DNA of 64,000 bases from an uncultured Dehalococcoidia bacterium. Its GTDB lineage: Bacteria; Chloroflexota; Dehalococcoidia; SZUA-161. Below the pieces are notes generated by a model. That model ran no database searches and was not told the DNA's origin. It worked only from the letters and a program-made list of their open reading frames with translations. The position numbers and the translations under genes are program-made. The DNA is taken from NCBI GenBank assembly GCA_964574685.1, contig CAZNOI010000004.1, forward strand, positions 64,930 to 128,929. Reading direction: 5' to 3'. Of this stretch, positions 919 through 64,000 are shown one piece after another (positions within the stretch are counted from its first letter, which is position 1; each line of letters begins with the position of its first letter).

Positions 919-935
919 TGGATTTGTGGGCAGTA

Positions 936-1125: not shown

Positions 1126-1131
1126 GATGCC

Positions 1132-9430: not shown

Positions 9431-9459
9431 AAGCAGGTGGTAGCAGCCGTCTCCCCCAT

Positions 9460-10071: not shown

Positions 10072-10077
10072 TTCGTA

Positions 10078-10527: not shown

Positions 10528-10528
10528 G

Positions 10529-11635: not shown

Positions 11636-11674
11636 CCTGCAAAATCCCGCTGTCTCTTCGCAACTCGTCAGCGG

Positions 11675-32341: not shown

Positions 32342-32353
32342 CGCACTCTCGTT

Positions 32354-33223: not shown

Positions 33224-33244
33224 CTTTTCTCCCTCTCTACTCGG

Positions 33245-45596: not shown

Positions 45597-45633
45597 CGGC
45601 CTGCAATCGATAGAACCTCATTGAGGAGGCACT

Positions 45634-46428: not shown

Positions 46429-46487
46429 AAAGCCCCGTCCTTCTGTGAGTGCGCCGCTGCCTGGAAGGCTACTAAGGAGGAGACTGA

Positions 46488-48194: not shown

Positions 48195-48232
48195 GCCCGG
48201 CCCAATCCGAGCTACTTAGGAGGTAATGACAA

Positions 48233-48631: not shown

Positions 48632-48676
48632 AGCCATCGCTTGTGGCTCAGGCCCAATCCATATAGGGAGGAGAAC

Positions 48677-49477
48677 ATGCACCACTACGAGACCATCCTT
48701 TTCGAGAAGAGCGATGGTGTTGGCAAGATCACCTTCAACCGTCCCGACAAGCTCAACGCCTTCAATCCTCAGATGTCTCAGGAATTGAGAGACTGTGTCC
48801 GGCAGGTCGCCGGAGACGCAGAGGTCAGAGTGCTCATACTGACCGGGTCCGGCGACAGGGCGTTCATGGCAGGTGCCGATATCGACAAGACGATTCTGGC
48901 ATGGGTGGAGATGACCCGAAAGGGCGGCAGGGTCCTGGATGATCACCGGGAGTTCTTCTCCCCGACTATGCTGGAGGACCTGCCCCAGCCGGTCATCGGA
49001 GCCATCAATGGAATCGCCTTCGGGATGGGCTGTGAGATAGCCCTGGGTTGCGACGTCAGGATCGCTTCGGAGGCGGCCCAGTTCGGCCAGCCTGAGATCA
49101 AGCTCGGTATCATGTGCGGCGGAGGCGGCAGTGTCAGGCTCACCCGGCTGGTCGGCAAGGGCAAGGCAATGGAGATGTGCCTGACAGGTGACCCCATCGA
49201 TGCTCAGGAGGCTTACCGCGTCGGCTTGGCCAACCAGGTGGTTCCGGCTGCCGAGCTCGAGAATGCCGTGGCTGCGATGGTGAAGAAGCTGATGGCCAAG
49301 GGTGCTGTGGCTGTGGACTACACGAAGCGGTCAGTCAACGGGGCCATGAATATGGGCCTTCACGACGCGATAGAGAATGAAGCCAGACTCTTCTCCGAGG
49401 TATTCAGGACTGAGGATGCCCTGGAAGGAGCCAACGCATTCCTGGAGAAGAGAAAGCCCAACTTCCAGCACAAGTAG
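48677..49477 (+). CDS. Enoyl-CoA hydratase/isomerase (crotonase) family protein
   Basis: ITFNRPDKLNAF and GAINGIAFGMGCEIAL motifs. ATG at 48677 preceded by AGGGAGGAG. Confidence 0.85.
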   Translation: MHHYETILFEKSDGVGKITFNRPDKLNAFNPQMSQELRDCVRQVAGDAEVRVLILTGSGDRAFMAGADIDKTILAWVEMTRKGGRVLDDHREFFSPTMLEDLPQPVIGAINGIAFGMGCEIALGCDVRIASEAAQFGQPEIKLGIMCGGGGSVRLTRLVGKGKAMEMCLTGDPIDAQEAYRVGLANQVVPAAELENAVAAMVKKLMAKGAVAVDYTKRSVNGAMNMGLHDAIENEARLFSEVFRTEDALEGANAFLEKRKPNFQHK

Positions 49478-49506
49478 TGTCAGGACGAGCTGAAGCATTA
49501 GGAGAA

Positions 49507-49534
49507 GGGGCCTCGACGAGGCCCCTTCTCGTTT
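49507..49534. terminator. Bidirectional intrinsic terminator GGGGCCTC-gac-GAGGCCCC + TTCTCGTTT between convergent operons
   Basis: GC hairpin flanked by T-tract on the plus strand and A-rich/GAGAA on the other side; lies between the crotonase stop and the abfD-like stop. Confidence 0.55.
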
Positions 49535-49554
49535 GACGCGGAACTGGTTCCAGG

Positions 49555-51063
49555 CTAGGCGCAGCGGAAGTCCTTGAAGTACTCGTCCTCGGTCTTGCCG
49601 GTTATGCCCTCGAAGTGCCTGTCTTCCTTGATCCCTACTATGGTCTCGGCTATTTCCTTCTTCTTGTCGAGGGCGGCGCGCCGGCCGATCATCATCTTCT
49701 GAGCCTGGGGCGACCCCGCTCCGTGGAGGGCCTCGGGGAGGCCGGCTCCCACGGCCATGTTCTCAATGAGTCGCACCATGTGTATCCTGTCTCGCGTCGC
49801 GCTGCCTTCTTTGCCGCAGAAGTACTTCTCGATGTATGGGCCGACTTCCGGGTTCATGCAGTCTTTCTCCGACGGCAGAGTAATGAGCAGGCCCCCGGCG
49901 ATGTCTTGAGCCAGACGCATCCACTCATAGGTGTTTCGGGTAATGTTCAGCTTGACGACGTTCGCCAGAAGGGGGCTGATCGTATAGGCTCCGGAATTCG
50001 TCTTGGTACCCTCGTAAGAGCACGCCAGCGAGCATGACCAGCAGGTCTCAGCCATGCCGACCATCTCGGCCAGCAGGTCGCGTATGTAGGGGGCCTTCTC
50101 AATGCCGTTGTTCTCGGCTACCCAGTAAGCGGCCCCCGTCACGACGTCGGCAAGGCCGACCTTGCATCCACCGTAGTTGCTGCGGTGGAAGCCCGCAAAG
50201 GTCTCTACGAGTTGGCCGGTGAAATCGTACTCGCCACACATGAACACCCGGTCCCAGGGCACGAAGACGTTGTCGAATATGATCAATGTCTCCCCGCCGA
50301 CTATACCGTACTTCGCATTCCCGCAGTCGATCTCGCCGTCAAGCCGACGGGTATCGTTCGTCTGGCGGCCGAACACAAGGGTGACGCCCTCGGCATCTAC
50401 CGGGACGGCGAAGCATACGGAGTAGTCCTTGTCCTCTTCGCCCATTGTTCTCGTCGGCATTGCCAGTATCTCGTGCGAATTCACAGTCCCGGTGATATGG
50501 GCCTTGGCGCCCCGCACAACGATCCCGTCGTCTCTTCGCTCCACTACGTGAACGTATACGTCGGGGTCCGGCTGCTGGTGGGGCCGCAGGCTGCGGTCTC
50601 CCTTGGGGTCCGACATGGCGCCTGCCAGCATGAGATCGTTGTCCTGTACGTACTTCAGGTAGTTCTTGAAGCGCTGGTGATAGTCCGTGCCGTGCTTCTT
50701 GTCCATGTCATAGGTGGTGATGTAGACGGCGTTTAGCCCGTCCAGTCCCACACATCGTTGGAAGCACGTGCCTGTCTTCTGGCCGAGCAGCCTCATCATC
50801 CTGACCTTGTTCACCAGGTCGTCGATGCTGTGATGTATGTGGGTGAACCTGTTCACCTTCTCTCCGGTGAGGCTCGAAGTAGCAGTCATGGTCTCGGTGT
50901 GCTCAGGGTCGTTTGCCAGCTCGTAGGTCATGGCCGCCGCGTTGATATGCGGCTGGAACAGGGGATAGTCGACAACGTTCTCCACCAGTTCACCGAAGGC
51001 GTAGACCTTCGGGTGGAGCTTTCGGAGACTCTCAATGTACTCTTTGCCCGAGTTGATTCCCAT
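49555..51063 (-). CDS. 4-hydroxybutyryl-CoA dehydratase / vinylacetyl-CoA delta-isomerase (AbfD-type, HpaB fold)
   Basis: 502 aa. Cys100/Cys104 (CFQRC) and His293/Cys300 (HRSNYGGC) align with the C99/C103/H292/C299 [4Fe-4S] ligands of characterised AbfD. Confidence 0.8.
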   Translation of the reverse strand: MGINSGKEYIESLRKLHPKVYAFGELVENVVDYPLFQPHINAAAMTYELANDPEHTETMTATSSLTGEKVNRFTHIHHSIDDLVNKVRMMRLLGQKTGTCFQRCVGLDGLNAVYITTYDMDKKHGTDYHQRFKNYLKYVQDNDLMLAGAMSDPKGDRSLRPHQQPDPDVYVHVVERRDDGIVVRGAKAHITGTVNSHEILAMPTRTMGEEDKDYSVCFAVPVDAEGVTLVFGRQTNDTRRLDGEIDCGNAKYGIVGGETLIIFDNVFVPWDRVFMCGEYDFTGQLVETFAGFHRSNYGGCKVGLADVVTGAAYWVAENNGIEKAPYIRDLLAEMVGMAETCWSCSLACSYEGTKTNSGAYTISPLLANVVKLNITRNTYEWMRLAQDIAGGLLITLPSEKDCMNPEVGPYIEKYFCGKEGSATRDRIHMVRLIENMAVGAGLPEALHGAGSPQAQKMMIGRRAALDKKKEIAETIVGIKEDRHFEGITGKTEDEYFKDFRCA

Positions 51064-51128
51064 TCCGTCTTCCTGCCTTTCCAGCTCCCCCGCCGATTTC
51101 CGTTTGGCCCCAAGCCCTTACACGGGGC

Positions 51129-51989
51129 CTACTTCTTAGTATAGTCGTAGAAGCCCTTTCCTGTCTTGCGCCCCAGATGCCCGGCTCTTACCATCTGCCG
51201 CAGAAGCAGGGCGGGCCGATACTTGGGATCCCCATATTCCTCGTAGAGGTGCTCCATGCAGTAGAGGAGCGTATCCAGCCCCACGAAGTCGGCAAGCTCG
51301 AGTGGCCCCATCGGATGGTTCATGCCCAGTCTCATGCCCTTGTCGATATCCTCTGCGCTTGCGATGCCCTCAGCGAAGGCGCATATCGCCTCGTTCTGAA
51401 GCACCCCTATAAGTCTCGTCGTAGCGAACCCGGGGGTGTCATCAACCACGATAGCTTCTTTCGCCATTTTGGAGGAAACGGACCGGATCACATCGATCGT
51501 ATCCTGTGATGTACTGTAGCCACGCACGATCTCAACCAGAGGCATCATCGGCACGGGATTGAAGAAATGCATGCCTGCGAACCTGTCCGGACGACTCGTG
51601 CACGAGGCCATCTGCGTGATGCTGAGCCCGGAGGTGTTAGAAGCGAAAATCACGCTCTCCGGGCAGACTTTGTCGATTGCCTCGTAGGTCTGCTTCTTGA
51701 GATCGAAACTCTCCGGTATCGCTTCGATCACCAGGTCTACGTCCTTGACAGCCTCGGCCAGGTCTGTCGTCGCCTTGATCCTGGCGACCGCAGCATCGGC
51801 ATCAGCCTGGCCCATCTTTTCCTTCTTGACGAAACGCGCCAGGCTCTGCTTGATGGTGTCCATGCCCTTCTCGACGAACTTGTCCTCAATGTCGCGCATT
51901 CGCACTTCCAGGCCTACCTGTCCGGCGACCTGCGCGATTCCCGCCCCCATGATGCCGGCCCCGAGGACCCCGACTCGCTTCACCTCCAT
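51129..51989 (-). CDS. hbd: 3-hydroxybutyryl-CoA dehydrogenase
   Basis: NAD Rossmann motif [14 protein letters not shown] and a 3-hydroxyacyl-CoA dehydrogenase C-domain. Confidence 0.9.
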
Positions 51990-52031
51990 GCTACAAGGAC
52001 CTCCTCGAATATGAATTCCACGAATACCGCA

Positions 52032-52784
52032 TCAGACGGCCATCCAGCCGCCATCGACGAATATCGTCTGACCGGTAATGAAGTTCGAGTCGCTTGAAGC
52101 GAGGAAGACCGCTGCACCGACTATCTCCTCCGGCTGTGCGAACCTCTTCATCGGGTTCATGTTCTTCAGGCTCTCGTAGATTCGCTCGTTGTCGCGTAGT
52201 CCGGTGGTGAACTCCGTCTCGACGTAAGACGGGCCGATGCCGTTCACCTGGATATTGTGTTCGGCCCACTCGGCAGCCAGCACCTTCGTGACCAGAACGA
52301 TACCCCCCTTGCTGGCACAGTAGGCGACCAGTCTGGGCAGGGCCACTTCACCGCCGACGGAGGTCATGTTGATGATCTTGCCGCTCTTCTGCTGGATCAT
52401 GACTCGTCCGGCAGCCTGGCAGCACAGAAAGGTCCCGGTGAGGTTCGTCCGCATGATCTGGTCCCACGTCTCCAGCGGCGTGTCCTCGGCCCTCTTGTAG
52501 ATCGGACTGATGCCCGCGTTGTTGACGAGTATGTCGATGCGCCCGAATCGCGCAACCACTTCGTCGAACACCTGGGCTATGCTGTCACCATCAGCGACAT
52601 CGAGCCGCATTGCCAGTGCCTTCTTGCCCTGGTTGGTCAGTTCCTCGGCAAGGGCATTCGCGAGGTCGACCGACCGTCCGCATACCACGACGGTTGCCCC
52701 CTCGTTCGCGTAACCTTCGGCGATGGCTCTCCCGATCCCTTTTGTGGAACCGGTAACGACGGCTATCTTGTCCTTGAGTCTCAC
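52032..52784 (-). CDS. Short-chain dehydrogenase/reductase (FabG-like 3-oxoacyl reductase)
   Basis: TGSTKGIGRA coenzyme-binding motif, NNAG and the YxxxK catalytic motif. Confidence 0.85.
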   Translation of the reverse strand: MRLKDKIAVVTGSTKGIGRAIAEGYANEGATVVVCGRSVDLANALAEELTNQGKKALAMRLDVADGDSIAQVFDEVVARFGRIDILVNNAGISPIYKRAEDTPLETWDQIMRTNLTGTFLCCQAAGRVMIQQKSGKIINMTSVGGEVALPRLVAYCASKGGIVLVTKVLAAEWAEHNIQVNGIGPSYVETEFTTGLRDNERIYESLKNMNPMKRFAQPEEIVGAAVFLASSDSNFITGQTIFVDGGWMAV

Positions 52785-52898: not shown

Positions 52899-52974
<76 letters not shown>

Positions 52975-53068: not shown

Positions 53069-53098
53069 TTGACACTCCAGACTGGCCTACGATATACT
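53069..53098 (+). promoter_or_regulatory. Promoter TTGACA-N18-TATACT for the 2-hydroxyacid dehydrogenase-POR-ligase-dehydratase-ACAD operon
   Basis: Consensus -35 and a strong -10, ~160 nt upstream of the ATG at 53256. Confidence 0.5.
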
Positions 53099-53131
53099 AT
53101 CCTGCGAGAATGACCAGCTCATGCGGCCATA

Positions 53132-53173
53132 AATGCGGGTAGGCTTCGTCCAAAACAGGACGCTACCCGCATT
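53132..53173. promoter_or_regulatory. Perfect 11-bp inverted repeat AATGCGGGTAG-N20-CTACCCGCATT in the leader of the 53-64 kb operon
   Basis: Read directly from the sequence, lying between the predicted promoter and the start codon. Confidence 0.55.
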
Positions 53174-53255
53174 CTGATGTCCGAAGGCTATCCGCAAGGC
53201 GCTGACACCACGGGAACCCGATTTCCGCCCAGGCGTCCGCATGGAAGGGGGTGTC

Positions 53256-54242
53256 ATGGAAAAGCGAGATCACTACCGGATACTCATCACGGACCCGCTG
53301 GTGAACCGGATGGTGGAGGAGGCGAAGCAGAAGTTCCCAGAGGAAAGCAAGAAGGTGGAGTTTCTGCTGGTGGACAAAGGAGACGAGCAGGAGCTGGCAG
53401 GGAAGGTTACCGGAGTTGACATCCTTGTGGGGGCCAGGAATCGGATGTCCCGCGCCGTACTGGAGAAAGCCGACCGGGCAATCTTCATCCAGCAGTGCAG
53501 CGCAGGCTATGATAACATAGATATGAAGGCAGCGACCGAGAAGGGCATCAAGGTGTCCAATGCCGGCGGTGCGGGTGTCATACCGGTTGCCGAGCATACC
53601 ATCATGTTGATGCTGGCTGTCTCGAAGAACCTGCCCAGAGCGCACAACACTATGAAGCAGGGCGAGTGGATATTCGGGGAGTGTGTGGGCAAGGTCTATG
53701 AACTGCGTGACAAAACACTGGGCGTGGTGGGACTCGGCAAGATAGGCGCACAGGTGGCGCGCCTCGCGCATGCCTTCGGCATGAAGCTGCAGTACTTTGA
53801 CCCCTATCGGAAGGAAACCAGCGATCTGGAGTTCCCGATAGCCAGTGTATCGCTGGACGAGCTGCTGAAGACCTCGGACTACGTCACCATACACTCGCTT
53901 CTCACTCCCGAGACCAGGGGCATGATCGGAAGGAAGCAACTCGAGATGATGAAGGAGACCGCATACCTCATCAACACGTCGAGGGGCGCGGTAGTGGACG
54001 AGGAAGCTCTGGCCGAGATACTGGCGGCAGGGAAGATAAGGGGCGCCGGGCTGGATGTGTTCGGCGACCATGGAGACCCGCCGGACAAGTCAAGCGGGCT
54101 GCTCAAGTTGGACAACGTGGTACTGACACCCCACGTAGGTGGTGTGACCGCAGAGGACATCTACCGCAACTTCTACGTGACGTCCCTGGGAAACATAATG
54201 TCCGTTGTCAGGGGCGAAGAACCCAAGTACGTTTTGAACTGA
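53256..54242 (+). CDS. D-isomer-specific 2-hydroxyacid dehydrogenase (NAD-dependent; PGDH/HicDH/FldH-like)
   Basis: NAD motif VGLGKIGAQVARLA and the catalytic R...E...H triad region (LTPHVGG). ATG at 53256 preceded by GGAAGGGGG. Confidence 0.85.
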   Translation: MEKRDHYRILITDPLVNRMVEEAKQKFPEESKKVEFLLVDKGDEQELAGKVTGVDILVGARNRMSRAVLEKADRAIFIQQCSAGYDNIDMKAATEKGIKVSNAGGAGVIPVAEHTIMLMLAVSKNLPRAHNTMKQGEWIFGECVGKVYELRDKTLGVVGLGKIGAQVARLAHAFGMKLQYFDPYRKETSDLEFPIASVSLDELLKTSDYVTIHSLLTPETRGMIGRKQLEMMKETAYLINTSRGAVVDEEALAEILAAGKIRGAGLDVFGDHGDPPDKSSGLLKLDNVVLTPHVGGVTAEDIYRNFYVTSLGNIMSVVRGEEPKYVLN

Positions 54243-54304
54243 GGACTCGGGACCGGCCCGACGGGTCAGTGTCTACTACCGCTTTGATGTAAGGTGCTTG
54301 GACT

Positions 54305-54844
54305 ATGGTCAAGATAAGGGTACACGGCAGAGGAGGGGAGGGCGCTGTCACCTTTGCCCACATTTTGGCAGCGTCGGCCACCTATGACGGAAAGTGGGGC
54401 CAGTCCTGCATGGGGGCGGCGGTCGAGAGGCGGGGGGCGCCGGTGGAGGCATATGCAAGGATTGACGGCCGCAGGGTCGCGGAACGCGGGACCATTACCA
54501 GGCCCGACATCGTCGTGGTGCTGAATCCATCTCTGGCGGGCACGGTGAACCTTGAGGCCGGCATGAACGATAAGGGCGAGCTGGTGGTGAATTCGCCAAA
54601 GGGGCTGGACCTGAAGCACCCTGCCAGGTACGTTGACGCCACATCGATTGCCAGACAGATACTGAAAGTCCCCATCACCAATACGGTGATGCTGGGCGCA
54701 TTCGCGGCGGCAACCGGACTCGTCACTCTGGAATCGCTGGAGAAAGGCGCTCGGCTGTTGCTTGCGCCTCGCTTTAGTGAAGACAAGCTGCAGCGCAACT
54801 TCGAGGCGATCAGAGCGGGATACGAAGGAGTCAAGGGTGGCTAA
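54305..54844 (+). CDS. 2-oxoacid:ferredoxin oxidoreductase gamma subunit
   Basis: PorG-like sequence with the GRGGEGAVTFAHILA motif. Confidence 0.85.
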   Translation: MVKIRVHGRGGEGAVTFAHILAASATYDGKWGQSCMGAAVERRGAPVEAYARIDGRRVAERGTITRPDIVVVLNPSLAGTVNLEAGMNDKGELVVNSPKGLDLKHPARYVDATSIARQILKVPITNTVMLGAFAAATGLVTLESLEKGARLLLAPRFSEDKLQRNFEAIRAGYEGVKGG

Positions 54845-55133
54845 GACATATATCAGAGGCTCGGGTATCCACGCCGGTGGCACCATAGCGCTGGTCAACA
54901 AGACCGGGACCTGGCGCATCTACGATCCCGTCGTAGACCAGGAGAAGTGCATCGGCTGCAAGATATGCTCGCAGTTCTGTCCTGATGACTGCATCAGGAG
55001 GCTGGGGGTTGACAAGTCGGCTCCGGCGGGAACACCGCGCATCGAGATCGACATGGTTTACTGCAAGGGGTGCGGCATATGTGCCCAGGAGTGCCCCAAG
55101 GGCGCTATTCAGATGGTGTTGTGTGAGGCCTAA
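54837..55133 (+). CDS. 2-oxoacid:ferredoxin oxidoreductase delta subunit (2x[4Fe-4S] ferredoxin)
   Basis: CIGCKICSQFCP and CKGCGICAQECP clusters. The GTG start overlaps the porG stop, and GAAGGAG lies 7 nt upstream. Confidence 0.8.
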   Translation: MAKTYIRGSGIHAGGTIALVNKTGTWRIYDPVVDQEKCIGCKICSQFCPDDCIRRLGVDKSAPAGTPRIEIDMVYCKGCGICAQECPKGAIQMVLCEA

Positions 55134-55135
55134 CT

Positions 55136-57214
55136 ATGGACATGTTCCTTTCAGGTAACCAGTGTATTGCACAGGGCGCCAAGCTCTCCAAGGTTGAGGT
55201 GATAAGCGCCTATCCGATTACTCCTGCAACCCCGGCTTCGGAAGAACTCCACGACATGGTAGCAAGGGGGGAACTGGACGCCGATATAGTGAATGCCGAG
55301 TCAGAGCTGGGGGCAATGGGTATTTGCACCGGGGCTGCCGCCGGCGGGTGCCGTACCTTCAGTTGTACGTGTTCGCAGGGTTTCGCCCTCATGCGTGAGA
55401 TGCTGTGGGCTGCTTCGGGCATGGCTCTGCCGGTCGTGCTGGCGCTTGACAGTCGCGAGATCGGTCTGCCGCAGGGGCTGTTGAGCGACCACTCGGATGC
55501 TCTTTCGGAAAGGGATGCCAGCTTTCTGCAGTTCTACGTGGAGAACGGGCAGGAGATCATAGACTCGATCATTATGGCCTACAGAATCGCGGAGGACGAC
55601 AGGGTCCTGCTGCCCGCGCTGGTAGTGGCCGAGGGCCACCGGATGAGCCACAGCTTTGAGCCTGTGGAAGTGCCCGATCAGGCGAGGGTGGACAAGTTCC
55701 TGCCCAGATACAATCCGAAGCACGTCTTCATTGATCCCGACTATCCTCAGACCCAGGGCCCGGCCGTGATGGCGCAGTACCCCTGGATGAAGATGCAGCA
55801 GTACCAGGCGCAGCAAGAGGCGAAGAAGGTCATCAAGGAAGTCTGCGAGGAGTTCGCCAGGGAGTTCGGGCGTGAGTACGGACTGATCGAGGCCTACCGG
55901 ACCGAGGATGCGGAGATGGTCATGGTGGGAATGGGCAGCGCCGTCAGTATCATGCGCGAGAAGGTCGATGAGTACAGGGAGAAGGGACACAAGGTCGGTC
56001 TTCTCAAGATCCGGGCGTTCAGGCCGTTCCCGGAGGAGGAAGTCAGGAAGGCGCTGTCGGGAGCCAGGAAGGTCCTGGTGATTGAGCGGGCATGCTCGCC
56101 GGGCAACACCTACGGCGTAGCCTGCATAGAGGTTCGATGCGCCCTGCAGAAGTCCCCCACGACCATATCGAATGTCATCATCAGCGGCAAGGACATCGGT
56201 GGCGACGATATCGATGACATATTCGAACAGTGGCTGGCACGGGACGATGACTACGTTGAGTGGTACAAGATGGAGTATGACCAGCAGGCGGCGACCATGT
56301 GTGGCTATGACAACTGGGCCGGGCTGCTTGCTGGGGAGAAAGTGAACCGGGACGTCATAGCGCATGGCGAGGGATGTCTGAGCAAGGGAACGGCTTCCTG
56401 CGCAGGTTGCATAAGCCTCGGGGTCATCCGGGAGGCCTTAAGCGTCTTCGGCAAGGATGTCGCGGTTGTTGCGAACGCTGGCTGCCTGATGGCGGTAGGT
56501 ACGTTCTTCCCGCTGACAGCCTGGAAGGTCCCGTTCTTCTACTATACCTACAGTCACGCCGGTGCCGCGGCAAGCGGCATGGAAGTTGCGATGAAGAGGA
56601 AGGGCGTCAAGGCTGACCTCGTGCTGGTGGCTGGAGACGGCGCCATCTTCGACATCGGCCTCCAGACGTTCTCGGCGGCTCTTGAACGGGGTCATCGTAT
56701 CATATACCTCTGCTACGACAACCAGGGCTATATGAACACGGGAGTGCAGCGAAGCGGGTCCACGCCGCACGGCGCTCGGACCAAGACAACCCCCGAGGGT
56801 CGTACCGGGCGAATCAAAGATATCGAGCAGATAGTCGCGGCGCACGGAGATGTGTATATCGCGACAGCTTCGCCGGCCTATCCTGACGACCTGATCAAGA
56901 AGATGAAGAAGGCAAGGAGCCTGGACAAGCCGTCATTCATCCACGTGGTGTGCCCGTGCCCGCCGGGATGGGAATACGATCCGGCGATCGGTATTGAGAT
57001 CGCTCGGCTGGGGGTCGAAACGGGGGCTATCGTCCTGTATGAGTGGGAAGACGGGCAGGTCAAGCTGAGCCGGGTGCCGAAGGAAAGGAAGCCGGTGCGC
57101 GAGTACCTGGCGAAGCAGGGTCGCTTCGACCATCTGTCTGAGGCTGACTTGCAGTATATCCAGGAAGAGGTGGATCGGGAATTTGCCAGGCTGACTGCCG
57201 GAAATCCATCGTAG
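55136..57214 (+). CDS. 2-oxoacid:ferredoxin oxidoreductase, fused alpha-beta subunits
   Basis: 692 aa whose N-half is PorA-like and whose C-half is PorB-like, with the TPP-binding GDG (VLVAGDGAIFDIG) and the cluster cysteines CLSKGTASCAGC. Confidence 0.85.
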   Translation: MDMFLSGNQCIAQGAKLSKVEVISAYPITPATPASEELHDMVARGELDADIVNAESELGAMGICTGAAAGGCRTFSCTCSQGFALMREMLWAASGMALPVVLALDSREIGLPQGLLSDHSDALSERDASFLQFYVENGQEIIDSIIMAYRIAEDDRVLLPALVVAEGHRMSHSFEPVEVPDQARVDKFLPRYNPKHVFIDPDYPQTQGPAVMAQYPWMKMQQYQAQQEAKKVIKEVCEEFAREFGREYGLIEAYRTEDAEMVMVGMGSAVSIMREKVDEYREKGHKVGLLKIRAFRPFPEEEVRKALSGARKVLVIERACSPGNTYGVACIEVRCALQKSPTTISNVIISGKDIGGDDIDDIFEQWLARDDDYVEWYKMEYDQQAATMCGYDNWAGLLAGEKVNRDVIAHGEGCLSKGTASCAGCISLGVIREALSVFGKDVAVVANAGCLMAVGTFFPLTAWKVPFFYYTYSHAGAAASGMEVAMKRKGVKADLVLVAGDGAIFDIGLQTFSAALERGHRIIYLCYDNQGYMNTGVQRSGSTPHGARTKTTPEGRTGRIKDIEQIVAAHGDVYIATASPAYPDDLIKKMKKARSLDKPSFIHVVCPCPPGWEYDPAIGIEIARLGVETGAIVLYEWEDGQVKLSRVPKERKPVREYLAKQGRFDHLSEADLQYIQEEVDREFARLTAGNPS

Positions 57215-57223
57215 GGGGAGAGC

Positions 57224-58864
57224 ATGCTGGAACTTAAGCAGGGTGATACGCTGGCGAGTATCATCAACAGGATGGCAGAGCAGTTTCCGAATCAGGAGGC
57301 GGTGGTCTGCGGCGCGCAAAGGATCAAGTACAGCGACTACCAGGACAAGATCAACTCGATGGCTGACGCCCTTGTGAAGCTAGGCGTCAAGAAGGGCGAC
57401 AAGGTCGCGATATGGATGAGTAACATTCCCGAGTGGCTTTACGCCCACTTCGCATGCATCAAGATTGGTGCTCCGGTGGTGCCTCTGAATACGAGATACA
57501 GGACGCACGAACTCGAGTACATACTAAGGCAGTCTGACAGCACTACACTGGTCATGATGGACAGGTTCTTGAAGATTGACTTCATCCCTATGATCTACGA
57601 AGTCCTGCCGGAACTGAACGAATGCAAGCCGGGCGAACTGAAGTCGAAGGCACTGCCTCAACTCAAGCGCGTGATCATGGTTGGCGAGAAGGAGTATCCG
57701 GGCACCTTGCCCTTCAACCAGGTTCTCGAATCCGGTAGAGGCGATACTGATGCGGTCAAGAAGGCTGAGCAGGCAGTGAAGCCTGAAGATGTTTACATAA
57801 TACCCTTTACATCGGGTACCACTGGATTTCCAAAGGGAGTGGTGACTACGCACTACCAGTACGTGCGCACGATTGAGGCGTTCAGTCGCCGATTCGAGAT
57901 GACCGAGAAGGACCGCATACTCGTTGTGTCGCCCTTCAACCACAACATGGGGAACATGACCGGGATGACGCTCGGTGCCTGTCATGCGGCCTGCATTCTG
58001 CCGATGGAGCAGTTCGACCCGGGCGAGGCGCTGCGCCTGATCGAGGAGGAGAAGGTAACGAACTTCACCGGCTCCCCGACGATGTACATCATGATGATGG
58101 ACCATCCCGATTTCCCGAACCGTGACACCACCTCCATAAGGAGTTGCATCATAGGCGGCGCCGATGTCAATCCGGACCTTGTCAGGGCCATCATGGAGAA
58201 GATGGGAATCAAGGATGTCATCTCGGCGTATGGAATGACGGAGAACACGGGCATCAGCACGTATTCCCGTCCGGGCGACTCGGTCGATCGGATTGCTCAT
58301 ACCGCTGGCAAGCTGATCCACGACGACTGCGACATGAAGGTGCTCGACCCCGAGACGGGGGAGGAAGTACCGCGCGGCACGCAGGGCGAGATATGTACCA
58401 AGGGCTGGTTTGTGATGAAGGAGTACTACAAGCAGCCCGACGAGACTGCCAGGGCGTTCGACAAGAACGGCTGGTTCCGTACCGGAGACCTCGGCGTCAT
58501 GGACGAGGACGGCTATATCAAGATCACCGGTCGATTGAAGGACATGTTCATAACCGGCGGTGTGAACGCCTACCCGGCTGAGATCGAGAACTTCCTGATG
58601 ACCCATCCCAAGGTCGCGATGGCGTCCGTCACAGGGGTCCCCGACAGGCGCATGGGTGAGGTAGCGATGGCTTTCATAAAGCTGAAGGAGGGCCAGGAGG
58701 CTACTGCCGAGGAGATCATCCAGTTCTCCCGAGAGAAGATGGCGAACTACAAGGCACCCAAGTACGTCAAGTTCGTGGATGACTTCCCCATGACGGCGAC
58801 CGGCAAGATACAGAAGTTCGTGCTCAGAGATGAGGCGGTGAAGGAACTCGGACTAGAGCAGTAG
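57224..58864 (+). CDS. AMP-forming acyl-CoA synthetase (FadD/MenE-like ligase)
   Basis: AMP-binding motif FTSGTTGFPKGV and the C-terminal PKTATGKIQK lysine motif. Confidence 0.85.
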   Translation: MLELKQGDTLASIINRMAEQFPNQEAVVCGAQRIKYSDYQDKINSMADALVKLGVKKGDKVAIWMSNIPEWLYAHFACIKIGAPVVPLNTRYRTHELEYILRQSDSTTLVMMDRFLKIDFIPMIYEVLPELNECKPGELKSKALPQLKRVIMVGEKEYPGTLPFNQVLESGRGDTDAVKKAEQAVKPEDVYIIPFTSGTTGFPKGVVTTHYQYVRTIEAFSRRFEMTEKDRILVVSPFNHNMGNMTGMTLGACHAACILPMEQFDPGEALRLIEEEKVTNFTGSPTMYIMMMDHPDFPNRDTTSIRSCIIGGADVNPDLVRAIMEKMGIKDVISAYGMTENTGISTYSRPGDSVDRIAHTAGKLIHDDCDMKVLDPETGEEVPRGTQGEICTKGWFVMKEYYKQPDETARAFDKNGWFRTGDLGVMDEDGYIKITGRLKDMFITGGVNAYPAEIENFLMTHPKVAMASVTGVPDRRMGEVAMAFIKLKEGQEATAEEIIQFSREKMANYKAPKYVKFVDDFPMTATGKIQKFVLRDEAVKELGLEQ

Positions 58865-58866
58865 AC

Positions 58867-59967
58867 ATGGTTTCCGAATTCGCCGAGGCGTACAACAGAA
58901 GACACGAGCTTGCCCAGGAGTGGAAGAATCAGGGAAAGAGGATACTCGGCTACTTCTGCAACTACAGTCCGGAAGAGATCATATACGCGGCGGACATCAT
59001 TCCGGTGCGTGTCAGGGGCGGGACAGAGAACGTAGAACTCGTTGACGCGCATCTGCCCGCCTATTGCTGTTCCTTCATCAGGACGGCACTGGAGCAGGCG
59101 CTGAAGGGCAAGTACAGCTATCTGGACGGCGCCGTGTTTCCGAAATCCTGCGACATGACCCGCGTGCTTCCCAGCATATGGAAGCGCAATATGAACCCCA
59201 GCTTCGAGTACTTCATACCCGTCCCGGGCAGGATCAGCGACGAGGCTGTGGACTTTCTGGAGCACGAGTTGGGCGTGTTCAAGGAAGCGCTCGAAGCCTA
59301 TGCCGGCAGGAGGATCGAGGAGGCGGAGCTCCGGCAGGCAATTCGAGCCTACAACACCAACCGAGAGTTGATGTCGAGAGTCTACGAGCTGACTCTGTCT
59401 GACGCCCCACATTTCAAGGGCAGTGACCTCTTGGCAATCGAGTTGTCGGGACTCATCATGCCCAAGGACCAGCATAACGAAATGCTGCGCCGACTGCTCG
59501 ACAACCCGCCTCGTACGGAACAAGGTGATGGGTTCAAGCGCCTCATGCTGGTTGGCAATACCTTCGAGACGATTGAGATGCTGAAGGTGATCGAAGGCGC
59601 AGGTGGAAACATGGTGATCGACGACCTAGACATCGGCACGAGGTACTACACCACGCTTGTTGACGAGAGCAAGCCGCCCCTGAGGGCGCTGGCGGAGAGG
59701 TACGTCCGCAAGGTGCCGTGCCCGTGCAAGCATCCGACTCAGGCTCGAATGGAGCACATCCTGAAGCTGGCCGGGGAATACCGTGTGCAGGGCGTGATCC
59801 TCGTGAATCAGAAGTACTGTGACAGTCATTTGTACGACCGGCCCTGGATTGAGGGGACGCTGAAGGAGCACGGCTTTCCGGTGCTGTTCGTAGAGCACTC
59901 GGACATCGGGTGGGCCGGCGGGAAGTTCAGGACGATGGCCGAGGCTTTCATGGAGATGATGGGGTAG
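58867..59967 (+). CDS. 2-hydroxyacyl-CoA dehydratase / BCR family small catalytic subunit (HgdB/HadC/BcrC-like), paralog of 35421-36548
   Basis: N-terminal EWKNQGKRILGYFCNYSPEEIIYAADIIPVRVRG is co-linear with the cluster-1 subunit; 366 aa. Confidence 0.8.
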   Translation: MVSEFAEAYNRRHELAQEWKNQGKRILGYFCNYSPEEIIYAADIIPVRVRGGTENVELVDAHLPAYCCSFIRTALEQALKGKYSYLDGAVFPKSCDMTRVLPSIWKRNMNPSFEYFIPVPGRISDEAVDFLEHELGVFKEALEAYAGRRIEEAELRQAIRAYNTNRELMSRVYELTLSDAPHFKGSDLLAIELSGLIMPKDQHNEMLRRLLDNPPRTEQGDGFKRLMLVGNTFETIEMLKVIEGAGGNMVIDDLDIGTRYYTTLVDESKPPLRALAERYVRKVPCPCKHPTQARMEHILKLAGEYRVQGVILVNQKYCDSHLYDRPWIEGTLKEHGFPVLFVEHSDIGWAGGKFRTMAEAFMEMMG

Positions 59968-59974
59968 CGACTTC

Positions 59975-61228
59975 ATGGAGAAGAAGCAGGACAAACCGGA
60001 AGGTCAGGCCAAGCCCCCGAGGCTGGCGTCCGCGGCGGCACTCGGCCCGATAAACGAAGAGTATTACCGTGATCTGGCGAACGCCAGAGAACAGGGACGT
60101 CCCGTATTCTGGATCACGTCCATGGCTCCGATAGAGCTTGTCTATGCCTTCGACGGCATAGCTTTCTTTCCCGAGAACTATGCCGCGCTGTGCTCCTCCC
60201 GCAAGGTCGCCCCTGAGTTCGTGGATGCGGGCATCGCCCAGGGCTACGCCGCCGGGATATGCTCTTACGCTCTCAACACGTTCGGCTTCATTGAACTGGG
60301 GCGCGGGGCTTTCGGCGACCAGGCGCCTGCACCGCCGGACATCCTTCTTGCTACCGAGGGGGCGTGTATTACGCATCCCAAGTGGTGGGAGGCTTTGCAG
60401 CGCATCTACAACTGCCCACTTGTGATAGTCGATGCTGCCTATACCGTGGATACCGACACCCTGTCAGAGCACCAGAGACGGTACATGGCCTCGGAACTCG
60501 AGAGGGCTGGCAAGGAAATCGGCCGGCATCTGGGGAAGGAGTTCGATCTGGACAAGCTCCAGGAAGTCGTCAGGCTGTCGGATCGCGCAAGCGAGCTCTG
60601 GGACGAAATCGATGCCATGAGGGCCGCCGTGCCGTCACCTATCAGCCAGATCGACGTCTTCACGCTGCAGTTCCCTCTTGTGACTCTTAAGGGCTCCCGG
60701 ACTGCCGCTGAGTTCTACGAACCGGTGCGCGACGAAGTTAAGCAGCGCGTGGACAACGGCGTAGGATTCCTCCAGGACGAAAGGTTCCGTCTTATGTGGG
60801 ACCTGTTTCCCGTGTTTCACAATCTGCGTCTCTTCAACTACTTCGCCGAGTACGGGGCCGCATTCGTCACGGACCTGTACGGCAACGCTTTCAGCGGTCG
60901 GCTCGATCTGGCAGACCCCCTGGGCAGCATGGCTGCCCGCTACCAGAGCTTCTTCATGCGGTCCGCCTCGTGGGGCAAGGCGGAGATATACAAGGAACGC
61001 GCGAAGAGGTATAGGGTTGACGGTATGGTATTTCATGCAAACCGCTGCTGCCGATGCTTCTCAGCCGAGCAGCCGGAGGTCGGCCAGATACTCAGGCAGG
61101 AACTGGGAATACCGTGTATGTCCTTCGAGGCCGATATGGTCGACGTGAGGGCGTACGATGATGTTCAGGTCAAGGCACGAATTGATGCCTTCATAGAGTT
61201 GCTCGAATCCAGGAAGTATCCGAAGTAG
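59975..61228 (+). CDS. 2-hydroxyacyl-CoA dehydratase / BCR family large catalytic subunit (HgdA/HadB/BcrB-like)
   Basis: 417 aa of the HGD-D family with the AAGICSYALNTFG Cys region. It is a distant paralog of 34047-35375. Confidence 0.8.
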   Translation: MEKKQDKPEGQAKPPRLASAAALGPINEEYYRDLANAREQGRPVFWITSMAPIELVYAFDGIAFFPENYAALCSSRKVAPEFVDAGIAQGYAAGICSYALNTFGFIELGRGAFGDQAPAPPDILLATEGACITHPKWWEALQRIYNCPLVIVDAAYTVDTDTLSEHQRRYMASELERAGKEIGRHLGKEFDLDKLQEVVRLSDRASELWDEIDAMRAAVPSPISQIDVFTLQFPLVTLKGSRTAAEFYEPVRDEVKQRVDNGVGFLQDERFRLMWDLFPVFHNLRLFNYFAEYGAAFVTDLYGNAFSGRLDLADPLGSMAARYQSFFMRSASWGKAEIYKERAKRYRVDGMVFHANRCCRCFSAEQPEVGQILRQELGIPCMSFEADMVDVRAYDDVQVKARIDAFIELLESRKYPK

Positions 61229-61260
61229 TCGGCGTCCAAACATACAAGGAGGACAGGATA

Positions 61261-62382
61261 GTGGATTTCAATCTGACCCAGGAACAGGAGATCTTCCAGA
61301 AGGAGGTCAGGAAGTTCGCGGATAGCGAACTGGCGCCCTTCGTGGAAGTGATGGATGTCCAGAACGAGTTCCCGCAAGAAATCCGGCCGAAGCTGGCCGC
61401 AATGAACCTCTATGGGGTCCCATGGGACCCGAAGTACGGAGGTGCGGGCTCTGATCACTTCCACCTTGTGCTCGCTCTGGAGGAGATCGCCAAAGTACTG
61501 GCTGCTGTCGCGATTCACATTCAGCTTCAGCACGTCGTCGGCGACAGGTTCAACAAGCTGGCCACCGAGGAGCAGAAGCTCAAGTGGATGGTGCCGATCT
61601 GCGAGGGCACAAAGGTCGGCTGTTTCGGATTCACGGAGCCCGATACCGGCTCGAACCCGAAGATGATCAGGACCACCGCAGTGGAAGAGGCCGATTGCTA
61701 CGTGATCAATGGCACGAAGCGGTTCATCACCAATGCCCCGTTCGCGGACGTCATGTGCGTTTTTGCGAAGCTGGAGGGCGATATCAGTCTGTTCTTCATA
61801 GAGGCGGACAAGCCCGGTTTTTCAACCGACAAGAAGATGGACAAGCTCGGGCTGAGGGGTACCGACCTCTCCGACGTCATATTCGAGGATGTGCGCGTCC
61901 CGAAGGATCACCTGATGGGCGGCAAGGGCGGCAAGTTCGACGCTCTCAAGGACGCCATGACCATCGGCAAGCTCTGCCTGAGCGCTCAGTGCGTAGGTCT
62001 GATGCAGGCCTCTCTGGAAGAGGCGATCAAGTACTCCGTGAACCGAATGCACTTCGATGAGCCCATATTCGACCTTCAGGCTATTCACTGGCTTCTGGGA
62101 GAGATGGCGTCGCGGCTGGAGGCAAGCCGGTGGCTGACCTATAGGGCTGCGTTTCTGAAAGACCAGGGTATGGACACGATCAAGGACATGGCAATCACCA
62201 AGCTGTTCGTCACCCAGACAGCAGTCGACGTGTGCAGGTTCGGAATGCAGGTCCACGGTGCGTACGGCATAAGCAAGGAGTACAAGATAGAGCGACTGTT
62301 CAGGGACGCCAAGATGTACGAGTTGCTGGAAGGTACGTCCGAGATACAGCGTGAGCTGGTTGTCAAGAGGCTTCCGCGATAG
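61261..62382 (+). CDS. Acyl-CoA dehydrogenase (short/medium-chain, butyryl-CoA dehydrogenase-like)
   Basis: ACAD N/M/C domains with a catalytic Glu near the C-terminus (YELLEGTSEIQR). Confidence 0.9.
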   Translation: MDFNLTQEQEIFQKEVRKFADSELAPFVEVMDVQNEFPQEIRPKLAAMNLYGVPWDPKYGGAGSDHFHLVLALEEIAKVLAAVAIHIQLQHVVGDRFNKLATEEQKLKWMVPICEGTKVGCFGFTEPDTGSNPKMIRTTAVEEADCYVINGTKRFITNAPFADVMCVFAKLEGDISLFFIEADKPGFSTDKKMDKLGLRGTDLSDVIFEDVRVPKDHLMGGKGGKFDALKDAMTIGKLCLSAQCVGLMQASLEEAIKYSVNRMHFDEPIFDLQAIHWLLGEMASRLEASRWLTYRAAFLKDQGMDTIKDMAITKLFVTQTAVDVCRFGMQVHGAYGISKEYKIERLFRDAKMYELLEGTSEIQRELVVKRLPR

Positions 62383-62445
62383 CACTACTTGATCAAGTGA
62401 AGTCCCAGTGATAGCTGGATTTGGAGAAGGCAAATGTCCCACAGT

Positions 62446-62480
62446 CACAGGGCCGGGGTCGCGAGACTTCTGGCCCTGTG
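62446..62480. repeat. Stem-loop CACAGGGCC-N17-GGCCCTGTG between two ACAD genes
   Basis: Perfect 9-bp inverted repeat with no U-tract. Confidence 0.4.
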
Positions 62481-62512
62481 TACTGTCTGATGCTCCAGGA
62501 AGGAGGGCGTAG

Positions 62513-63700
62513 ATGGACTTCAGACTCACGGATGAACAGAAGAAGCTGCGTCAGGAGTTCTTCAATGTGTGTGAGGAGCTCGCGAAAAAGCGGCCAGAGG
62601 GGTTCACCGGCCTGGAAGGGTGCTACGACACTGACGAGGGCTGGGAGTATCACCTGAGTTGCGCAAAGGAGTTTGCCAAGAGGAATTGGCTCGCACTCGG
62701 ATGGGACAAGGAGTATGGCGGGCAGGGCACCATCATGGACAAGGTGTTCCTTTCCGAGGCCACGGGATACTACGACGTTCCGGGCGTCGATATCTTCGGT
62801 GTTGACATGCTGGCGCCCACCTTGCATGCGGCGGCCAGCGACGAAATCAAGCGCGAGTACCTGCCGAGCATCAGGTCGGGTGAGCGCATGTGGTGCGAAC
62901 TCTGGAGTGAGCCGAACGCGGGCTCAGACCTGGCGGCGCTGACATCCTCCGCCGTCAGGAAGGGTGACGAGTACGTCATCAACGGCCAGAAGATATGGAG
63001 CACCGGTGCCCATAGAGGTCACTGGGCATTCGCGCTTGTCAGGACGGACCCGCATGCGGACCGGAAGCAGAAGGGTATCACCTTCATATTGATGGATATG
63101 AAGACCCCGGGCATAACGGTGAATCCGCTGCACTATATGGATGGGGGGCACCTGTACAACGAGGTATTCCTCGATGATGTGAAGGTGCCTGTGGACCAGG
63201 TAGTGGGCAAGGAGAACGAGGGCTGGGCTGTGACCCAGACCCTGGCGAACTTCGAGAGGTCGAGCCTGGGAGCAATCATGGCAATGCACCGGCAGCTCGA
63301 GGAGCTGGTGCAGTACTGCAACGAGACCAAGGTGGCCGGTGAACCGATCGCCAGAAAGCCACTGGTGCGGAACAAGCTCGCCGAACTGGCCTGCGAGCTG
63401 TGGGCGGCGCACTCACTGGCCTACAAGATCGTAGACGCTCAGAGCCGACATGAAATGGCCGCGTTCGACGCGTCGGCCGTCAAGGTGATCTCGGGCGAAC
63501 TGCAGGCCAAGTTTGGTCAGGTCGGTTGCGAGATACTCGGGCCCTACGGTCAGGTAAAGCACTCCAGGTGGTCGGAGTTCGAGGGCTTCTTCGAGAAATG
63601 GTACCAGCAGTCCTTCATCCTCAACGTAGCGATGGGCACCAACGAGATCCAGCGGAACATCATTGCCTGGTACGGACTCGGCCTCCCGAGGATGAAGTAA
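62513..63700 (+). CDS. Acyl-CoA dehydrogenase family protein
   Basis: ACAD fold with the YLPSIRSGERMWCELWSEPNAGSDLA FAD/substrate region. AGGAAGGAGGG ribosome-binding site. Confidence 0.85.
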   Translation: MDFRLTDEQKKLRQEFFNVCEELAKKRPEGFTGLEGCYDTDEGWEYHLSCAKEFAKRNWLALGWDKEYGGQGTIMDKVFLSEATGYYDVPGVDIFGVDMLAPTLHAAASDEIKREYLPSIRSGERMWCELWSEPNAGSDLAALTSSAVRKGDEYVINGQKIWSTGAHRGHWAFALVRTDPHADRKQKGITFILMDMKTPGITVNPLHYMDGGHLYNEVFLDDVKVPVDQVVGKENEGWAVTQTLANFERSSLGAIMAMHRQLEELVQYCNETKVAGEPIARKPLVRNKLAELACELWAAHSLAYKIVDAQSRHEMAAFDASAVKVISGELQAKFGQVGCEILGPYGQVKHSRWSEFEGFFEKWYQQSFILNVAMGTNEIQRNIIAWYGLGLPRMK

Positions 63701-63730
63701 GGCGTATTCCCAGCGAGAAGGAGCGTTGAG

Positions 63731-64000
63731 ATGGACATAAAGTTCACCGAAGAACAGGAGATGCTGCAGAAGACGGCATTCGATTTCCTTTCGACGGAGC
63801 TTCCCAAGACCAAGGTAATTGAGCTGGAAGACGACGAGAAGGGCTACTCACCGGATATCTGGAAGAAGATGGCCGAACTGGGCTGGCAGGGCCTCATGAT
63901 CCCGGAGGACTACGGTGGCATGGGAATGACATTCCAGGACCTCACTGTCCTGCTCGAGCAGATGGGCAGGAACGTAACGCCGGGCCCGTTCTTCTGCACT
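63731..64000 (+). CDS. Acyl-CoA dehydrogenase family protein (N-terminal part; runs off the window end)
   Basis: MDIKFTEEQEMLQKTAFDF... typical ACAD N-terminus. The ORF is open at 64000. Confidence 0.7.
   Translation, partial: MDIKFTEEQEMLQKTAFDFLSTELPKTKVIELEDDEKGYSPDIWKKMAELGWQGLMIPEDYGGMGMTFQDLTVLLEQMGRNVTPGPFFCT

Follow-up and report, generated by a model that had tools for sequence, protein, structure and literature searches.

An operon at the 3′ end of a 64,000-nucleotide stretch of DNA from an uncultured Dehalococcoidia bacterium (contig CAZNOI010000004.1; the whole stretch is referred to below as the window) encodes two adjacent HGD-D proteins that, judging by their residues and tree placement, are a distinct mosaic clade of the benzoyl-CoA reductase/2-hydroxyacyl-CoA dehydratase (BCR/HAD) family. 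No gene for an activating ATPase lies in this operon, and the absence of a local activator is a conserved trait of the lineage. We read the pair as a putative enzyme with dehydratase chemistry whose ATPase would be supplied in trans, a reading to which we assign a probability of roughly 0.5.

The ORF listing together with Pfam and NCBIfam matches showed that 53241-64000 is a tightly packed, one-strand gene run leading from a D-2-hydroxyacid dehydrogenase (HicDH) through a 2-oxoacid:ferredoxin oxidoreductase (OFOR) and a ligase to the HGD-D pair and the acyl-CoA dehydrogenases (ACADs), which is the gene set and order given in a preliminary description of this DNA. The gaps between the genes are 2-62 nt, with the exception of 130 nt before ACAD2. 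The genes are as follows:

53241-54242 (start at 53241 or 53256), + strand: D-isomer-specific 2-hydroxyacid dehydrogenase (2-Hacid_dh, HicDH; PF02826, PF00389)
54305-54844, + strand: OFOR gamma subunit (PF01558; TIGR02175, 159.9 bits against a cut-off of 81.1)
54837-55133, + strand: OFOR delta (2x[4Fe-4S]) subunit, 98 aa (TIGR02179, 87.4 bits against a cut-off of 60; the gene call on contig L001 agrees)
55136-57214, + strand: OFOR fused alpha-beta subunit, 692 aa (POR_N, PFOR_II and TPP_enzyme_C domains)
57224-58864, + strand: AMP-forming acyl-CoA ligase (PF00501, PF13193)
58867-59967, + strand: small HGD-D subunit, BzdN-like, 366 aa, with C-C-C-D-C-C at the ligand positions (PF06050)
59975-61228, + strand: large HGD-D subunit, putatively substrate-binding, 417 aa, HadB-like overall with a BzdO-type Glu/His pair (PF06050)
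61261-62382, + strand: ACAD1, AcrC/Bcd-like (three ACAD domains; AcrC is the best NCBIfam match, 344 bits, below its cut-off)
62513-63700, + strand: ACAD2, PimC-like large subunit (pimC_large is the best NCBIfam match, 222.6 bits, below its cut-off)
63731-64000, + strand: ACAD3, PimD-like, cut by the window end (pimD_small, 200 bits; the full gene encodes 378 aa)

Both ORFs of the pair matched PF06050 over their full length (262.9 and 212.6 bits), and the OFOR is of the POR/VOR type by Pfam and NCBIfam. The nearest NCBIfam and PDB matches of the dehydrogenase are phosphoglycerate dehydrogenase (PGDH), glyoxylate reductase and McyI, all under the family cut-offs, and those of the ligase in the PDB are feruloyl-CoA, fatty-acyl-CoA, malonyl-CoA and oxalyl-CoA synthetases. 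The 3′ end of the operon was read from L001, a 12.7-kb Logan contig that is identical to the window and reaches 1.66 kb past its end. It holds the complete ACAD3 at 10802-11938, followed by a terminator-like hairpin with a 12-bp stem and then a convergent ORF, which puts the end of the operon about 870 bp beyond the window. What had been given as "at least three" ACADs can thus be stated as exactly three, none further following on L001, and these 1.66 kb hold no activator ATPase.

To establish how far this arrangement extends, homologues were scanned with one genome per species, yielding 41 loci whose gene order was mapped by tblastn. The large subunit has its nearest homologues in Dehalococcoidia and Chloroflexota metagenome-assembled genomes (MAGs). 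The core ligase-small-large-ACAD1-ACAD2-ACAD3 is present in 24 Dehalococcoidia loci, in which ACAD1 is 81-89% identical, and the full set from the dehydrogenase to ACAD3 was found wherever the contig is long enough (L004, L010, L013, L014 and L026). No ATPase was matched at E<=0.01 in any of the 24 loci, searched over up to 10 kb. The same threshold gave no ATPase in L043, which represents a second lineage at 51% identity with the order TetR-HicDH-OFOR-ligase-small-large-MaoC-ACAD-ligase. Since the 24 orthologous loci share it, the missing activator noted earlier is a conserved feature and not an artefact of the window edge, as the L001 extension also showed.

The two subunits of the pair resemble different characterized proteins. 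Among solved structures, the small subunit matched BzdN best (8s02_B, 217 bits; HadC, 159 bits) and the large subunit HadB (3o3m_A, 187 bits; BzdO, 156 bits). Individual positions were then compared using the reference residues defined in the BzdNO structure paper (PMC11971306). In BzdN numbering, the small subunit keeps Cys36, 73, 100, 293 and 327 together with Arg53, Arg267 and His330; the six ligand positions of the [8Fe-9S] double cubane (C36/73/100/263/293/327) are thus occupied by five Cys and, at 263, an Asp that is invariant in 24/24 Dehalococcoidia orthologues. Relatives from Thermodesulfobacteriota and the Asgard archaea have all six double-cubane Cys. Neither the distal ligand Cys36 nor a Cys at position 263 is found in HadC or MbdN; in HadC, positions 36, 263, 53 and 330 are Pro, Ala, Gly and Glu, and MbdN has the three proximal Cys only. 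Across the clade linked to HicDH and OFOR the three proximal Cys never vary, while the distal set does, the full ligand sets being C-C-C-D-C-C in Dehalococcoidia, T-C-C-E-A-C in L023 and L043, and C-C-C-C-S-C in L046. The small subunit scored 183 bits against the HadC equivalog (cut-off 700), 215.9 against bzdN (cut-off 453.8) and 183 against NCBIfam double_cubane NF040772 (cut-off 350). In neighbour-joining trees with 100 bootstraps, its clade has 100% support and is a weak (42%) sister of BzdN.

The large subunit, in BzdO numbering, keeps E65, C95, Y97, C128, H131, Y298 and C380. Its three-Cys [4Fe-4S] site and the Glu (the equivalents of C95, C128, C380 and E65) are invariant in the clade, and its own residues E67 and H134 align to BzdO Glu65 and His131. 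The His131 position is Val in HadB in this alignment (Ala according to PMC11971306) and Phe in MbdO. The thioester and ring pocket of BzdO is not kept: the thioester-binding Gln274 and Leu302 are both replaced by Phe, and Glu381-Gly382-Leu383 by Arg-Cys-Phe, position 381 being basic as in HadB. The Trp46 pocket position was set aside, as the MAFFT columns disagree there with the HMMER pairwise alignment. A ten-residue signature, E-C-Y-C-H-F-Y-F-C-R, is identical in the window, L002, L023, L043 and L046, which speaks for a common function irrespective of how the ATPases are arranged. The tree placed the large subunit in a separate 97% clade, whose next relatives are a Bacillota set (72%) and, with weak support (26%), HadB, its split from BzdO being 100% supported; its scores were 205.3 bits against the HadB equivalog (cut-off 750) and 164.8 against bzdO (cut-off 448.6). 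The label HgdB/HgdA-like, under which the pair had been described, therefore holds for the presence of two adjacent PF06050 subunits and not for their type: the small one is BzdN-like, of a putative double-cubane type, and is no single three-Cys [4Fe-4S] accessory subunit as in HadC, and the large one carries the BzdO His.

Other relatives do carry ATPase genes at or near the pair. In L046, whose large and small subunits are 49% and 43% identical to those of the window, the pair comes after two family-III CoA-transferases and is directly followed by two distinct BcrAD_BadFG ATPases, the first P-like and the second Q-like; a divergent HicDH-OFOR unit, 57% and 60% identical to that of the window, is also present. 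Asgard archaeal relatives (44-45% identity) show the order small-large-one ATPase, this ATPase being 53-56% identical to the Q-like one of L046 and 42-43% to the BzdQ-like protein of the window, while Bacillota relatives (34%) have small-large-ATPase-ligase. The Bathyarchaeota locus L037 has P and Q proteins 56-58% identical to those of the window, 7 kb upstream of a pair belonging to the clade, and directly upstream of that pair a PanE/ApbA-type 2-oxoacid reductase stands in the place of HicDH. The complete L037 arrangement (34-11173, chromosome CP070765.1) consists of P and Q, an 835-aa Fer2/Fer4/Fer4_20/Pyr_redox_2 flavoprotein, thiolase, hydratase and 3-hydroxyacyl-CoA dehydrogenase genes, and then the PanE/ApbA reductase and the small-large pair. 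Other Chloroflexota have distinct ATPase-large-small(-ATPase) clusters, and homologues of the L046 ATPase at 57-58% identity occur in Chloroflexota and Dehalococcoidales MAGs. The clade thus comes in three ATPase configurations, with two adjacent genes, with one, or with none.

ATPases of this type are encoded in the window at a single place. A tblastn search with both proteins found them only at 32354-34009, as the preliminary description had stated. The surrounding genes do not encode a dehydratase with two activators; they are a complete bzdN-O-P-Q cluster with a ferredoxin, covering all four subunits:

35421-36548, - strand: BzdN-like subunit (TIGR03190, 393.8 bits, below the cut-off of 453.8)
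34047-35375, - strand: BzdO-like subunit (TIGR03191, 297 bits, below its cut-off)
33245-34009, - strand: BzdP-like ATPase, candidate trans-acting electron-activating subunit (TIGR00241, 221.6 bits, above the cut-off of 125.4)
32354-33223, - strand: BzdQ-like ATPase, candidate trans-acting electron-activating subunit (TIGR03192, 420.9 bits, above the cut-off of 380.2)
32015-32341, - strand: 2x[4Fe-4S] ferredoxin directly 3′ of bzdQ, in a BzdM-like position (Fer4 families)

The BzdN-like protein has all six double-cubane Cys, and the BzdO-like protein, 34% identical to BzdO, has retained Glu, His and all three Cys; they group with BzdN and BzdO, respectively, each at 100% bootstrap. The two HGD-D pairs of the window are indeed paralogous, as had been proposed, but only distantly so (the small subunits being 35% and the large ones 23% identical). 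About 90 further protein clusters, formed at 90% identity, contain relatives of the BzdQ-like protein at 80-92% identity, those with a name being from Dehalococcoidia, and the order N-O-P-Q-ferredoxin-glyA-rpsF-ssb-rpsR recurs on many Dehalococcoidia contigs (L052-L065). By assembly accession prefix, the BzdQ homologues examined (DUEY01, JBAROL01 and CP070667) stem from other assemblies than the operon loci. In relatives with a more distant GlyA, identity to the window is 86-89% for BzdQ, 84-88% for BzdO, 76-77% for BzdP, 72% for BzdN and 64-67% for GlyA; a cluster better conserved than GlyA is odd for a peripheral enzyme of aromatic degradation. The bzdNOPQ-ferredoxin genes lie between ribF and glyA-rpsF-ssb-rpsR, a housekeeping neighbourhood without dch, had or oah genes. 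On the 2.79-Mb Dehalococcoidia chromosome CP070667.1 (L051, 10001-11202), a BzdQ-like gene, annotated as partial in the source, and a ferredoxin precede glyA, and the genes upstream of Q are unrelated, with no N, O or P; translation of the sequence at this locus does not yield the query protein. The bzdNOPQ genes of marine Chloroflexi have been reported previously (PMC5736913).

On top of the observed gene content, synteny, ligand and active-site residues and missing local ATPase, we infer dehydratase chemistry, a substrate class, a direction of flux and an ATPase. In the proposed route, the D-2-hydroxyacid dehydrogenase would convert a 2-oxoacid to the (R)-2-hydroxyacid, the AMP-forming ligase would convert this to the 2-hydroxyacyl-CoA, and the HGD-D pair would remove water by ketyl-radical chemistry at the three-Cys [4Fe-4S] cluster of the large subunit to yield the 2-enoyl-CoA. 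The three ACADs, one AcrC-like and two forming a PimCD-like pair, would act on the enoyl-CoA, probably with the electron transfer flavoprotein (ETF) encoded at 19.9-21.9 kb; alternatively, the enoyl-CoA might enter beta-oxidation via the neighbouring hydratase and 3-hydroxyacyl-CoA dehydrogenase genes. The OFOR would oxidize part of the same 2-oxoacid pool to provide reduced ferredoxin. The low-potential electron for the pair would come from an ATP-hydrolysing ASKHA-type ATPase acting in trans, for which the best visible candidates are encoded at 32015-34009, namely the BzdP/BzdQ-like ATPases with their ferredoxin; this module would then be shared with the adjacent BzdNO-like enzyme. The ETF genes, placed there in the preliminary description as well, are supported by NCBIfam ETF matches, and their link to the operon is one we would only suggest:

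19895-20782 (etfB) and 20821-21885 (etfA), - strand: ETF, possible redox partner of the ACADs (NCBIfam ETF, AcrA/AcrB-like matches)

The gene context favours 2-hydroxyacyl-CoA dehydration over arene reduction. The pair is linked to an (R)-2-hydroxyacid dehydrogenase, a CoA-activating enzyme and an ACAD, and dehydration is to be preferred because, depending on the lineage, one or the other of two unrelated 2-oxoacid reductases (2-Hacid_dh or PanE/ApbA) is encoded upstream of the pair, because a ligase or family-III CoA-transferases accompany it upstream, and because ACADs, or a MaoC hydratase in L043, follow it. These family-III CoA-transferases are of the HadA/FldA family. As to the substrate, the PimC/PimD-like ACADs, the succinate-glutarate- and mesaconate-type transferases in L046 and the PGDH-like dehydrogenase are weak hints that it may be a dicarboxylic acid; the nearest matches in the PDB and NCBIfam give only generic assignments for the dehydrogenase, ligase and OFOR.

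With regard to the ATPase, L046 combines the same signature with P- and Q-like ATPases, so that this enzyme class most probably needs an ATP-driven electron donor; by analogy with L046, then, the enzyme type would use a two-gene ATPase module. As the Dehalococcoidia operon has no ATPase, such a protein would have to act in trans. That the BzdPQ-ferredoxin module is this donor, one module serving two catalytic modules, is a more tentative proposition than trans supply as such, and we hold it to be possible. It is favoured by the position of these proteins as the sole such ATPases within the 64 kb, by the unusually good conservation of BzdQ, and by the L037 neighbourhood, which pairs window-type P and Q with a member of the clade. 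The ATPase and catalytic dimers of the BZD type are predicted to associate only transiently (PMC11971306), so that an exchange of modules would be allowed.

Several points weigh against dehydration with an ATPase supplied in trans. Neither subunit comes near the equivalog cut-offs for HadB and HadC, and reductase-like chemistry would also fit the BzdN-like, double-cubane-type ligands and the His that in BzdO acts as acid/base at the aqua-[4Fe-4S] cluster. An AMP-forming ligase acting at each turnover would be energetically costly for a fermentative route. The L046 and Asgard ATPases are 53-56% identical to each other and 42-44% to the BzdQ of the window, and BzdPQ is therefore not the orthologue of the clade's own adjacent ATPases. 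Finally, our view covers 64 kb of the genome, and other Chloroflexota have further ATPase-containing HGD-D clusters.

Two rival explanations deserve weight, though we consider each of them unlikely. In the first, the pair would be a BCR-like, ATP-stoichiometric two-electron reductase of an aromatic or unsaturated acyl-CoA delivered by the ligase, with BzdPQ as its stoichiometric ATPase and with the OFOR, perhaps also the dehydrogenase, mainly regenerating the low-potential electron donor; a 2-oxoglutarate:ferredoxin oxidoreductase (KGOR) reportedly regenerates the BCR electron donor in Thauera. Such a reductase would fit a small subunit that matches BzdN best and has 5/6 [8Fe-9S] ligands plus Arg53, Arg267 and His330, a large subunit with the Glu65/His131 pair of BzdO, the four-gene N-O-P-Q-like layout of the orthologous L046 cluster with its two different ATPases, and the bzdNOPQ paralogue in the same window. 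It fits less well with a large subunit nearer to HadB than to BzdO, in which both BzdO Gln274 and pocket Leu302 are Phe, and with an operon without dch, had or oah-type genes; moreover, the two unrelated 2-oxoacid reductase families found directly upstream of the pair are hard to explain for an arene reductase. The double-cubane argument is further weakened by the decay of the distal-cubane ligands within the clade itself (T-C-C-E-A-C in L023 and L043) and by the fact that this cluster is not general to BCRs, MbdN having just three proximal Cys.

The second explanation, which we rate similarly low, keeps the dehydratase chemistry and takes the ATPase to be a dedicated HgdC-like activator whose gene lies outside the 64 kb, BzdPQ then serving BzdNO only. 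The closer identity of the second L046 ATPase to the Asgard ATPases than to the BzdQ of the window, given above, would be expected on these terms, as would the 57-58% identical homologues of the L046 ATPase in Chloroflexota and Dehalococcoidales MAGs, and Chloroflexota can hold several BCR/HAD systems. However, the two Chloroflexota homologues examined lie inside other ATPase-large-small clusters and are not free-standing, and the 24 loci, searched up to 10 kb from the operon, showed no such activator.

It is very improbable, in our judgement, that in this Dehalococcoidia lineage the pair works without an ATPase, electrons passing straight from the OFOR's low-potential ferredoxin module to the Asp-substituted double cubane of the pair; if true, the pair would be an ATP-independent ketyl-radical dehydratase or reductase. 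Equally hard to credit is a reversed pathway of anaerobic alpha-oxidation, in which the ligase and ACADs would produce a 2-enoyl-CoA, the pair would hydrate it to the 2-hydroxyacyl-CoA and, after loss of CoA, the dehydrogenase would form the 2-oxoacid for decarboxylation by the OFOR to an acyl-CoA one carbon shorter: the ligase and three ACADs in the operon (no thioesterase or transferase being needed at the start), the invariable linkage of an OFOR to the pair and the nearby beta-oxidation genes agree with it, but the operon has no thioesterase or CoA-transferase to release the 2-hydroxyacid, the route is without precedent, and the gene order runs in the reductive direction, from dehydrogenase to ACADs.

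The gene content of the operon also accords with the logic of known operons, and the Had/Fld-like organization proposed earlier was borne out. HadBC with its activator HadI (C. difficile; PDB 3O3M), FldBC/FldI, HgdAB/HgdC and LcdAB share with the window pair the encoding of two adjacent homologous HGD-D subunits, and HadB, the protein closest to the large subunit, has the three Cys, the Glu and the Tyr in common with it. The Had/Fld systems likewise join a D-2-hydroxyacid dehydrogenase, CoA activation, a dehydratase pair and an ACAD, with an ETF nearby. They differ in that no single-gene ATPase activator lies adjacent to the pair in the window operon or the 24 orthologous loci, and in that the window operon has a built-in OFOR and a ligase instead of a family-III CoA-transferase. 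The ligase, to which the preliminary description had drawn attention as a replacement for the CoA-transferase, is present as described; it is not unprecedented, since the C. sporogenes fldLAIBC cluster contains an acyl-CoA ligase (PMC12064059). At the residue level, HadC has three Cys where the small subunit has 5 Cys and an Asp in the BzdN manner, and HadB has no His at the BzdO-His131 position, where the large subunit does.

BzdNOPQ (Aromatoleum; PDB 8S02; PMC11971306) resembles the pair in its small-then-large order, in BzdN as the closest relative of the small subunit, in the Glu65/His131 pair and 3-Cys [4Fe-4S] site of BzdO, and in the N-O-P-Q layout that the orthologous L046 cluster displays. 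Unlike it, the window operon has neither P nor Q; the large subunit shares only 23% identity with the BzdO-like protein of the window and falls outside the BzdO clade; Gln274 is replaced by Phe, Cys263 by Asp, other pocket residues differ and the scores stay under the equivalog cut-offs; and the operon context is one of 2-oxo/2-hydroxyacid metabolism, not dienoyl-CoA metabolism. Most cluster-binding Cys are shared between the small subunit and DCCP, the double-cubane cluster protein of C. hydrogenoformans that is paired with the reductase DCCP-R (PDB 6ENO; PMC7317905); the small subunit also matches the double_cubane family, below its cut-off. DCCP forms a homodimer, has a 7-Cys motif and carries an N-terminal extension by which the CoA channel is closed, whereas the window enzyme is encoded as a heterodimeric pair with a HadB-like, putatively CoA-binding partner and one ligand Cys replaced.

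A promoter and a leader hairpin precede the first gene:

53069-53098, + strand: sigma-70-like promoter, TTGACA-18-TATACT, matching at 11/12 positions
53132-53142 and 53163-53173, + strand: inverted repeat forming a hairpin in the 5′ untranslated region, with 11-nt arms and a 20-nt loop

The promoter-like site, at the place where a strong promoter had been claimed, is of a kind that occurs only 2 times in 12 kb, and 7 further Dehalococcoidia loci keep its hexamers, at 17-18 nt spacing, 5′ of their first gene. The element earlier called an 11-bp perfect palindrome is actually an inverted repeat whose arms are separated by a 20-nt spacer, and its pattern, ..TGTGGGTA..N20..TACCCACA, is conserved in the window (53069-53190) and in 7 other Dehalococcoidia MAGs, where the promoter and leader copies lie at:

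L003, 1792-1915
L004, 2160-2280
L010, 3037-3155
L013, 1823-1955
L014, 1817-1950
L016, 1568-1690
L026, 1827-1957

In these relatives the hairpin is followed by a T6-9 run and then the ribosome-binding site, making it a terminator-like attenuator element; the window copy has no U-tract. One compensatory C-G to U-A change was observed. An Rfam scan of the leader region matched only the neighbouring tRNA-Ala and no leader family, and the fold of the window leader was unremarkable, with a z-score of only -1.1; given both results, we make no claim for a riboswitch.

Variants of the operon were seen in several orthologous loci. In L013 (3523-5151), and likewise in L003, L004, L012, L014, L016, L017 and L026, the 98-aa OFOR delta subunit is replaced by a 542-aa protein with a Fer4_20 and Pyr_redox_2 (GltD/NfnB-like NAD(P)H) module between the delta ferredoxin halves, which suggests a pyridine-nucleotide-linked version of the OFOR. 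L015 carries two inverted ligase-small-large-ACAD copies on one contig (86-6047 and 7256-15980); in one of its large subunits (2040-3290) the substitutions E65K, C95T and Y97V remove the catalytic Glu, a cluster Cys and Tyr97, and this copy may be a decaying duplicate. In L026 (17689-21234; MAG B_CHL_03) a second OFOR with unfused gamma, delta, alpha and beta genes, together with another ACAD, lies directly downstream of the operon.

Upstream of the operon, the window holds an island of acyl-CoA metabolism genes (43806-52784). This island comprises a fused family-I CoA-transferase (43806-45596), two enoyl-CoA hydratases, a 3-hydroxyacyl-CoA dehydrogenase, a short-chain dehydrogenase/reductase, an HpaB-fold protein (4-hydroxybutyryl-CoA dehydratase family) and the large subunit of a mutase resembling methylmalonyl-CoA mutase, with no obvious adjacent B12 subunit. 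A tRNA-Ala(GGC) gene follows it at 52899-52974.

Our literature search found no description of this operon or clade, no report joining Dehalococcoidia with 2-hydroxyacyl-CoA dehydratase and nothing on a structure of MbdON. The clade is an uncharacterized variant inside a known enzyme family and not a new kind of system. Few members of the BCR/HAD radical family have been characterized, and this clade mixes the hallmarks of dehydratases and reductases, a HadB-like subunit with the BzdO His being combined with a BzdN-like, putative double-cubane subunit that has Asp at a ligand position. An annotation as "benzoyl-CoA reductase" in Chloroflexota metagenomes is accordingly no evidence for aromatic degradation. 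The clade offers a test case for the role of the double cubane and for the exchange of ATP-driven "archerase" modules between catalytic partners, as well as for the processing of 2-oxo and 2-hydroxy acids by the abundant Dehalococcoidia of sediments.

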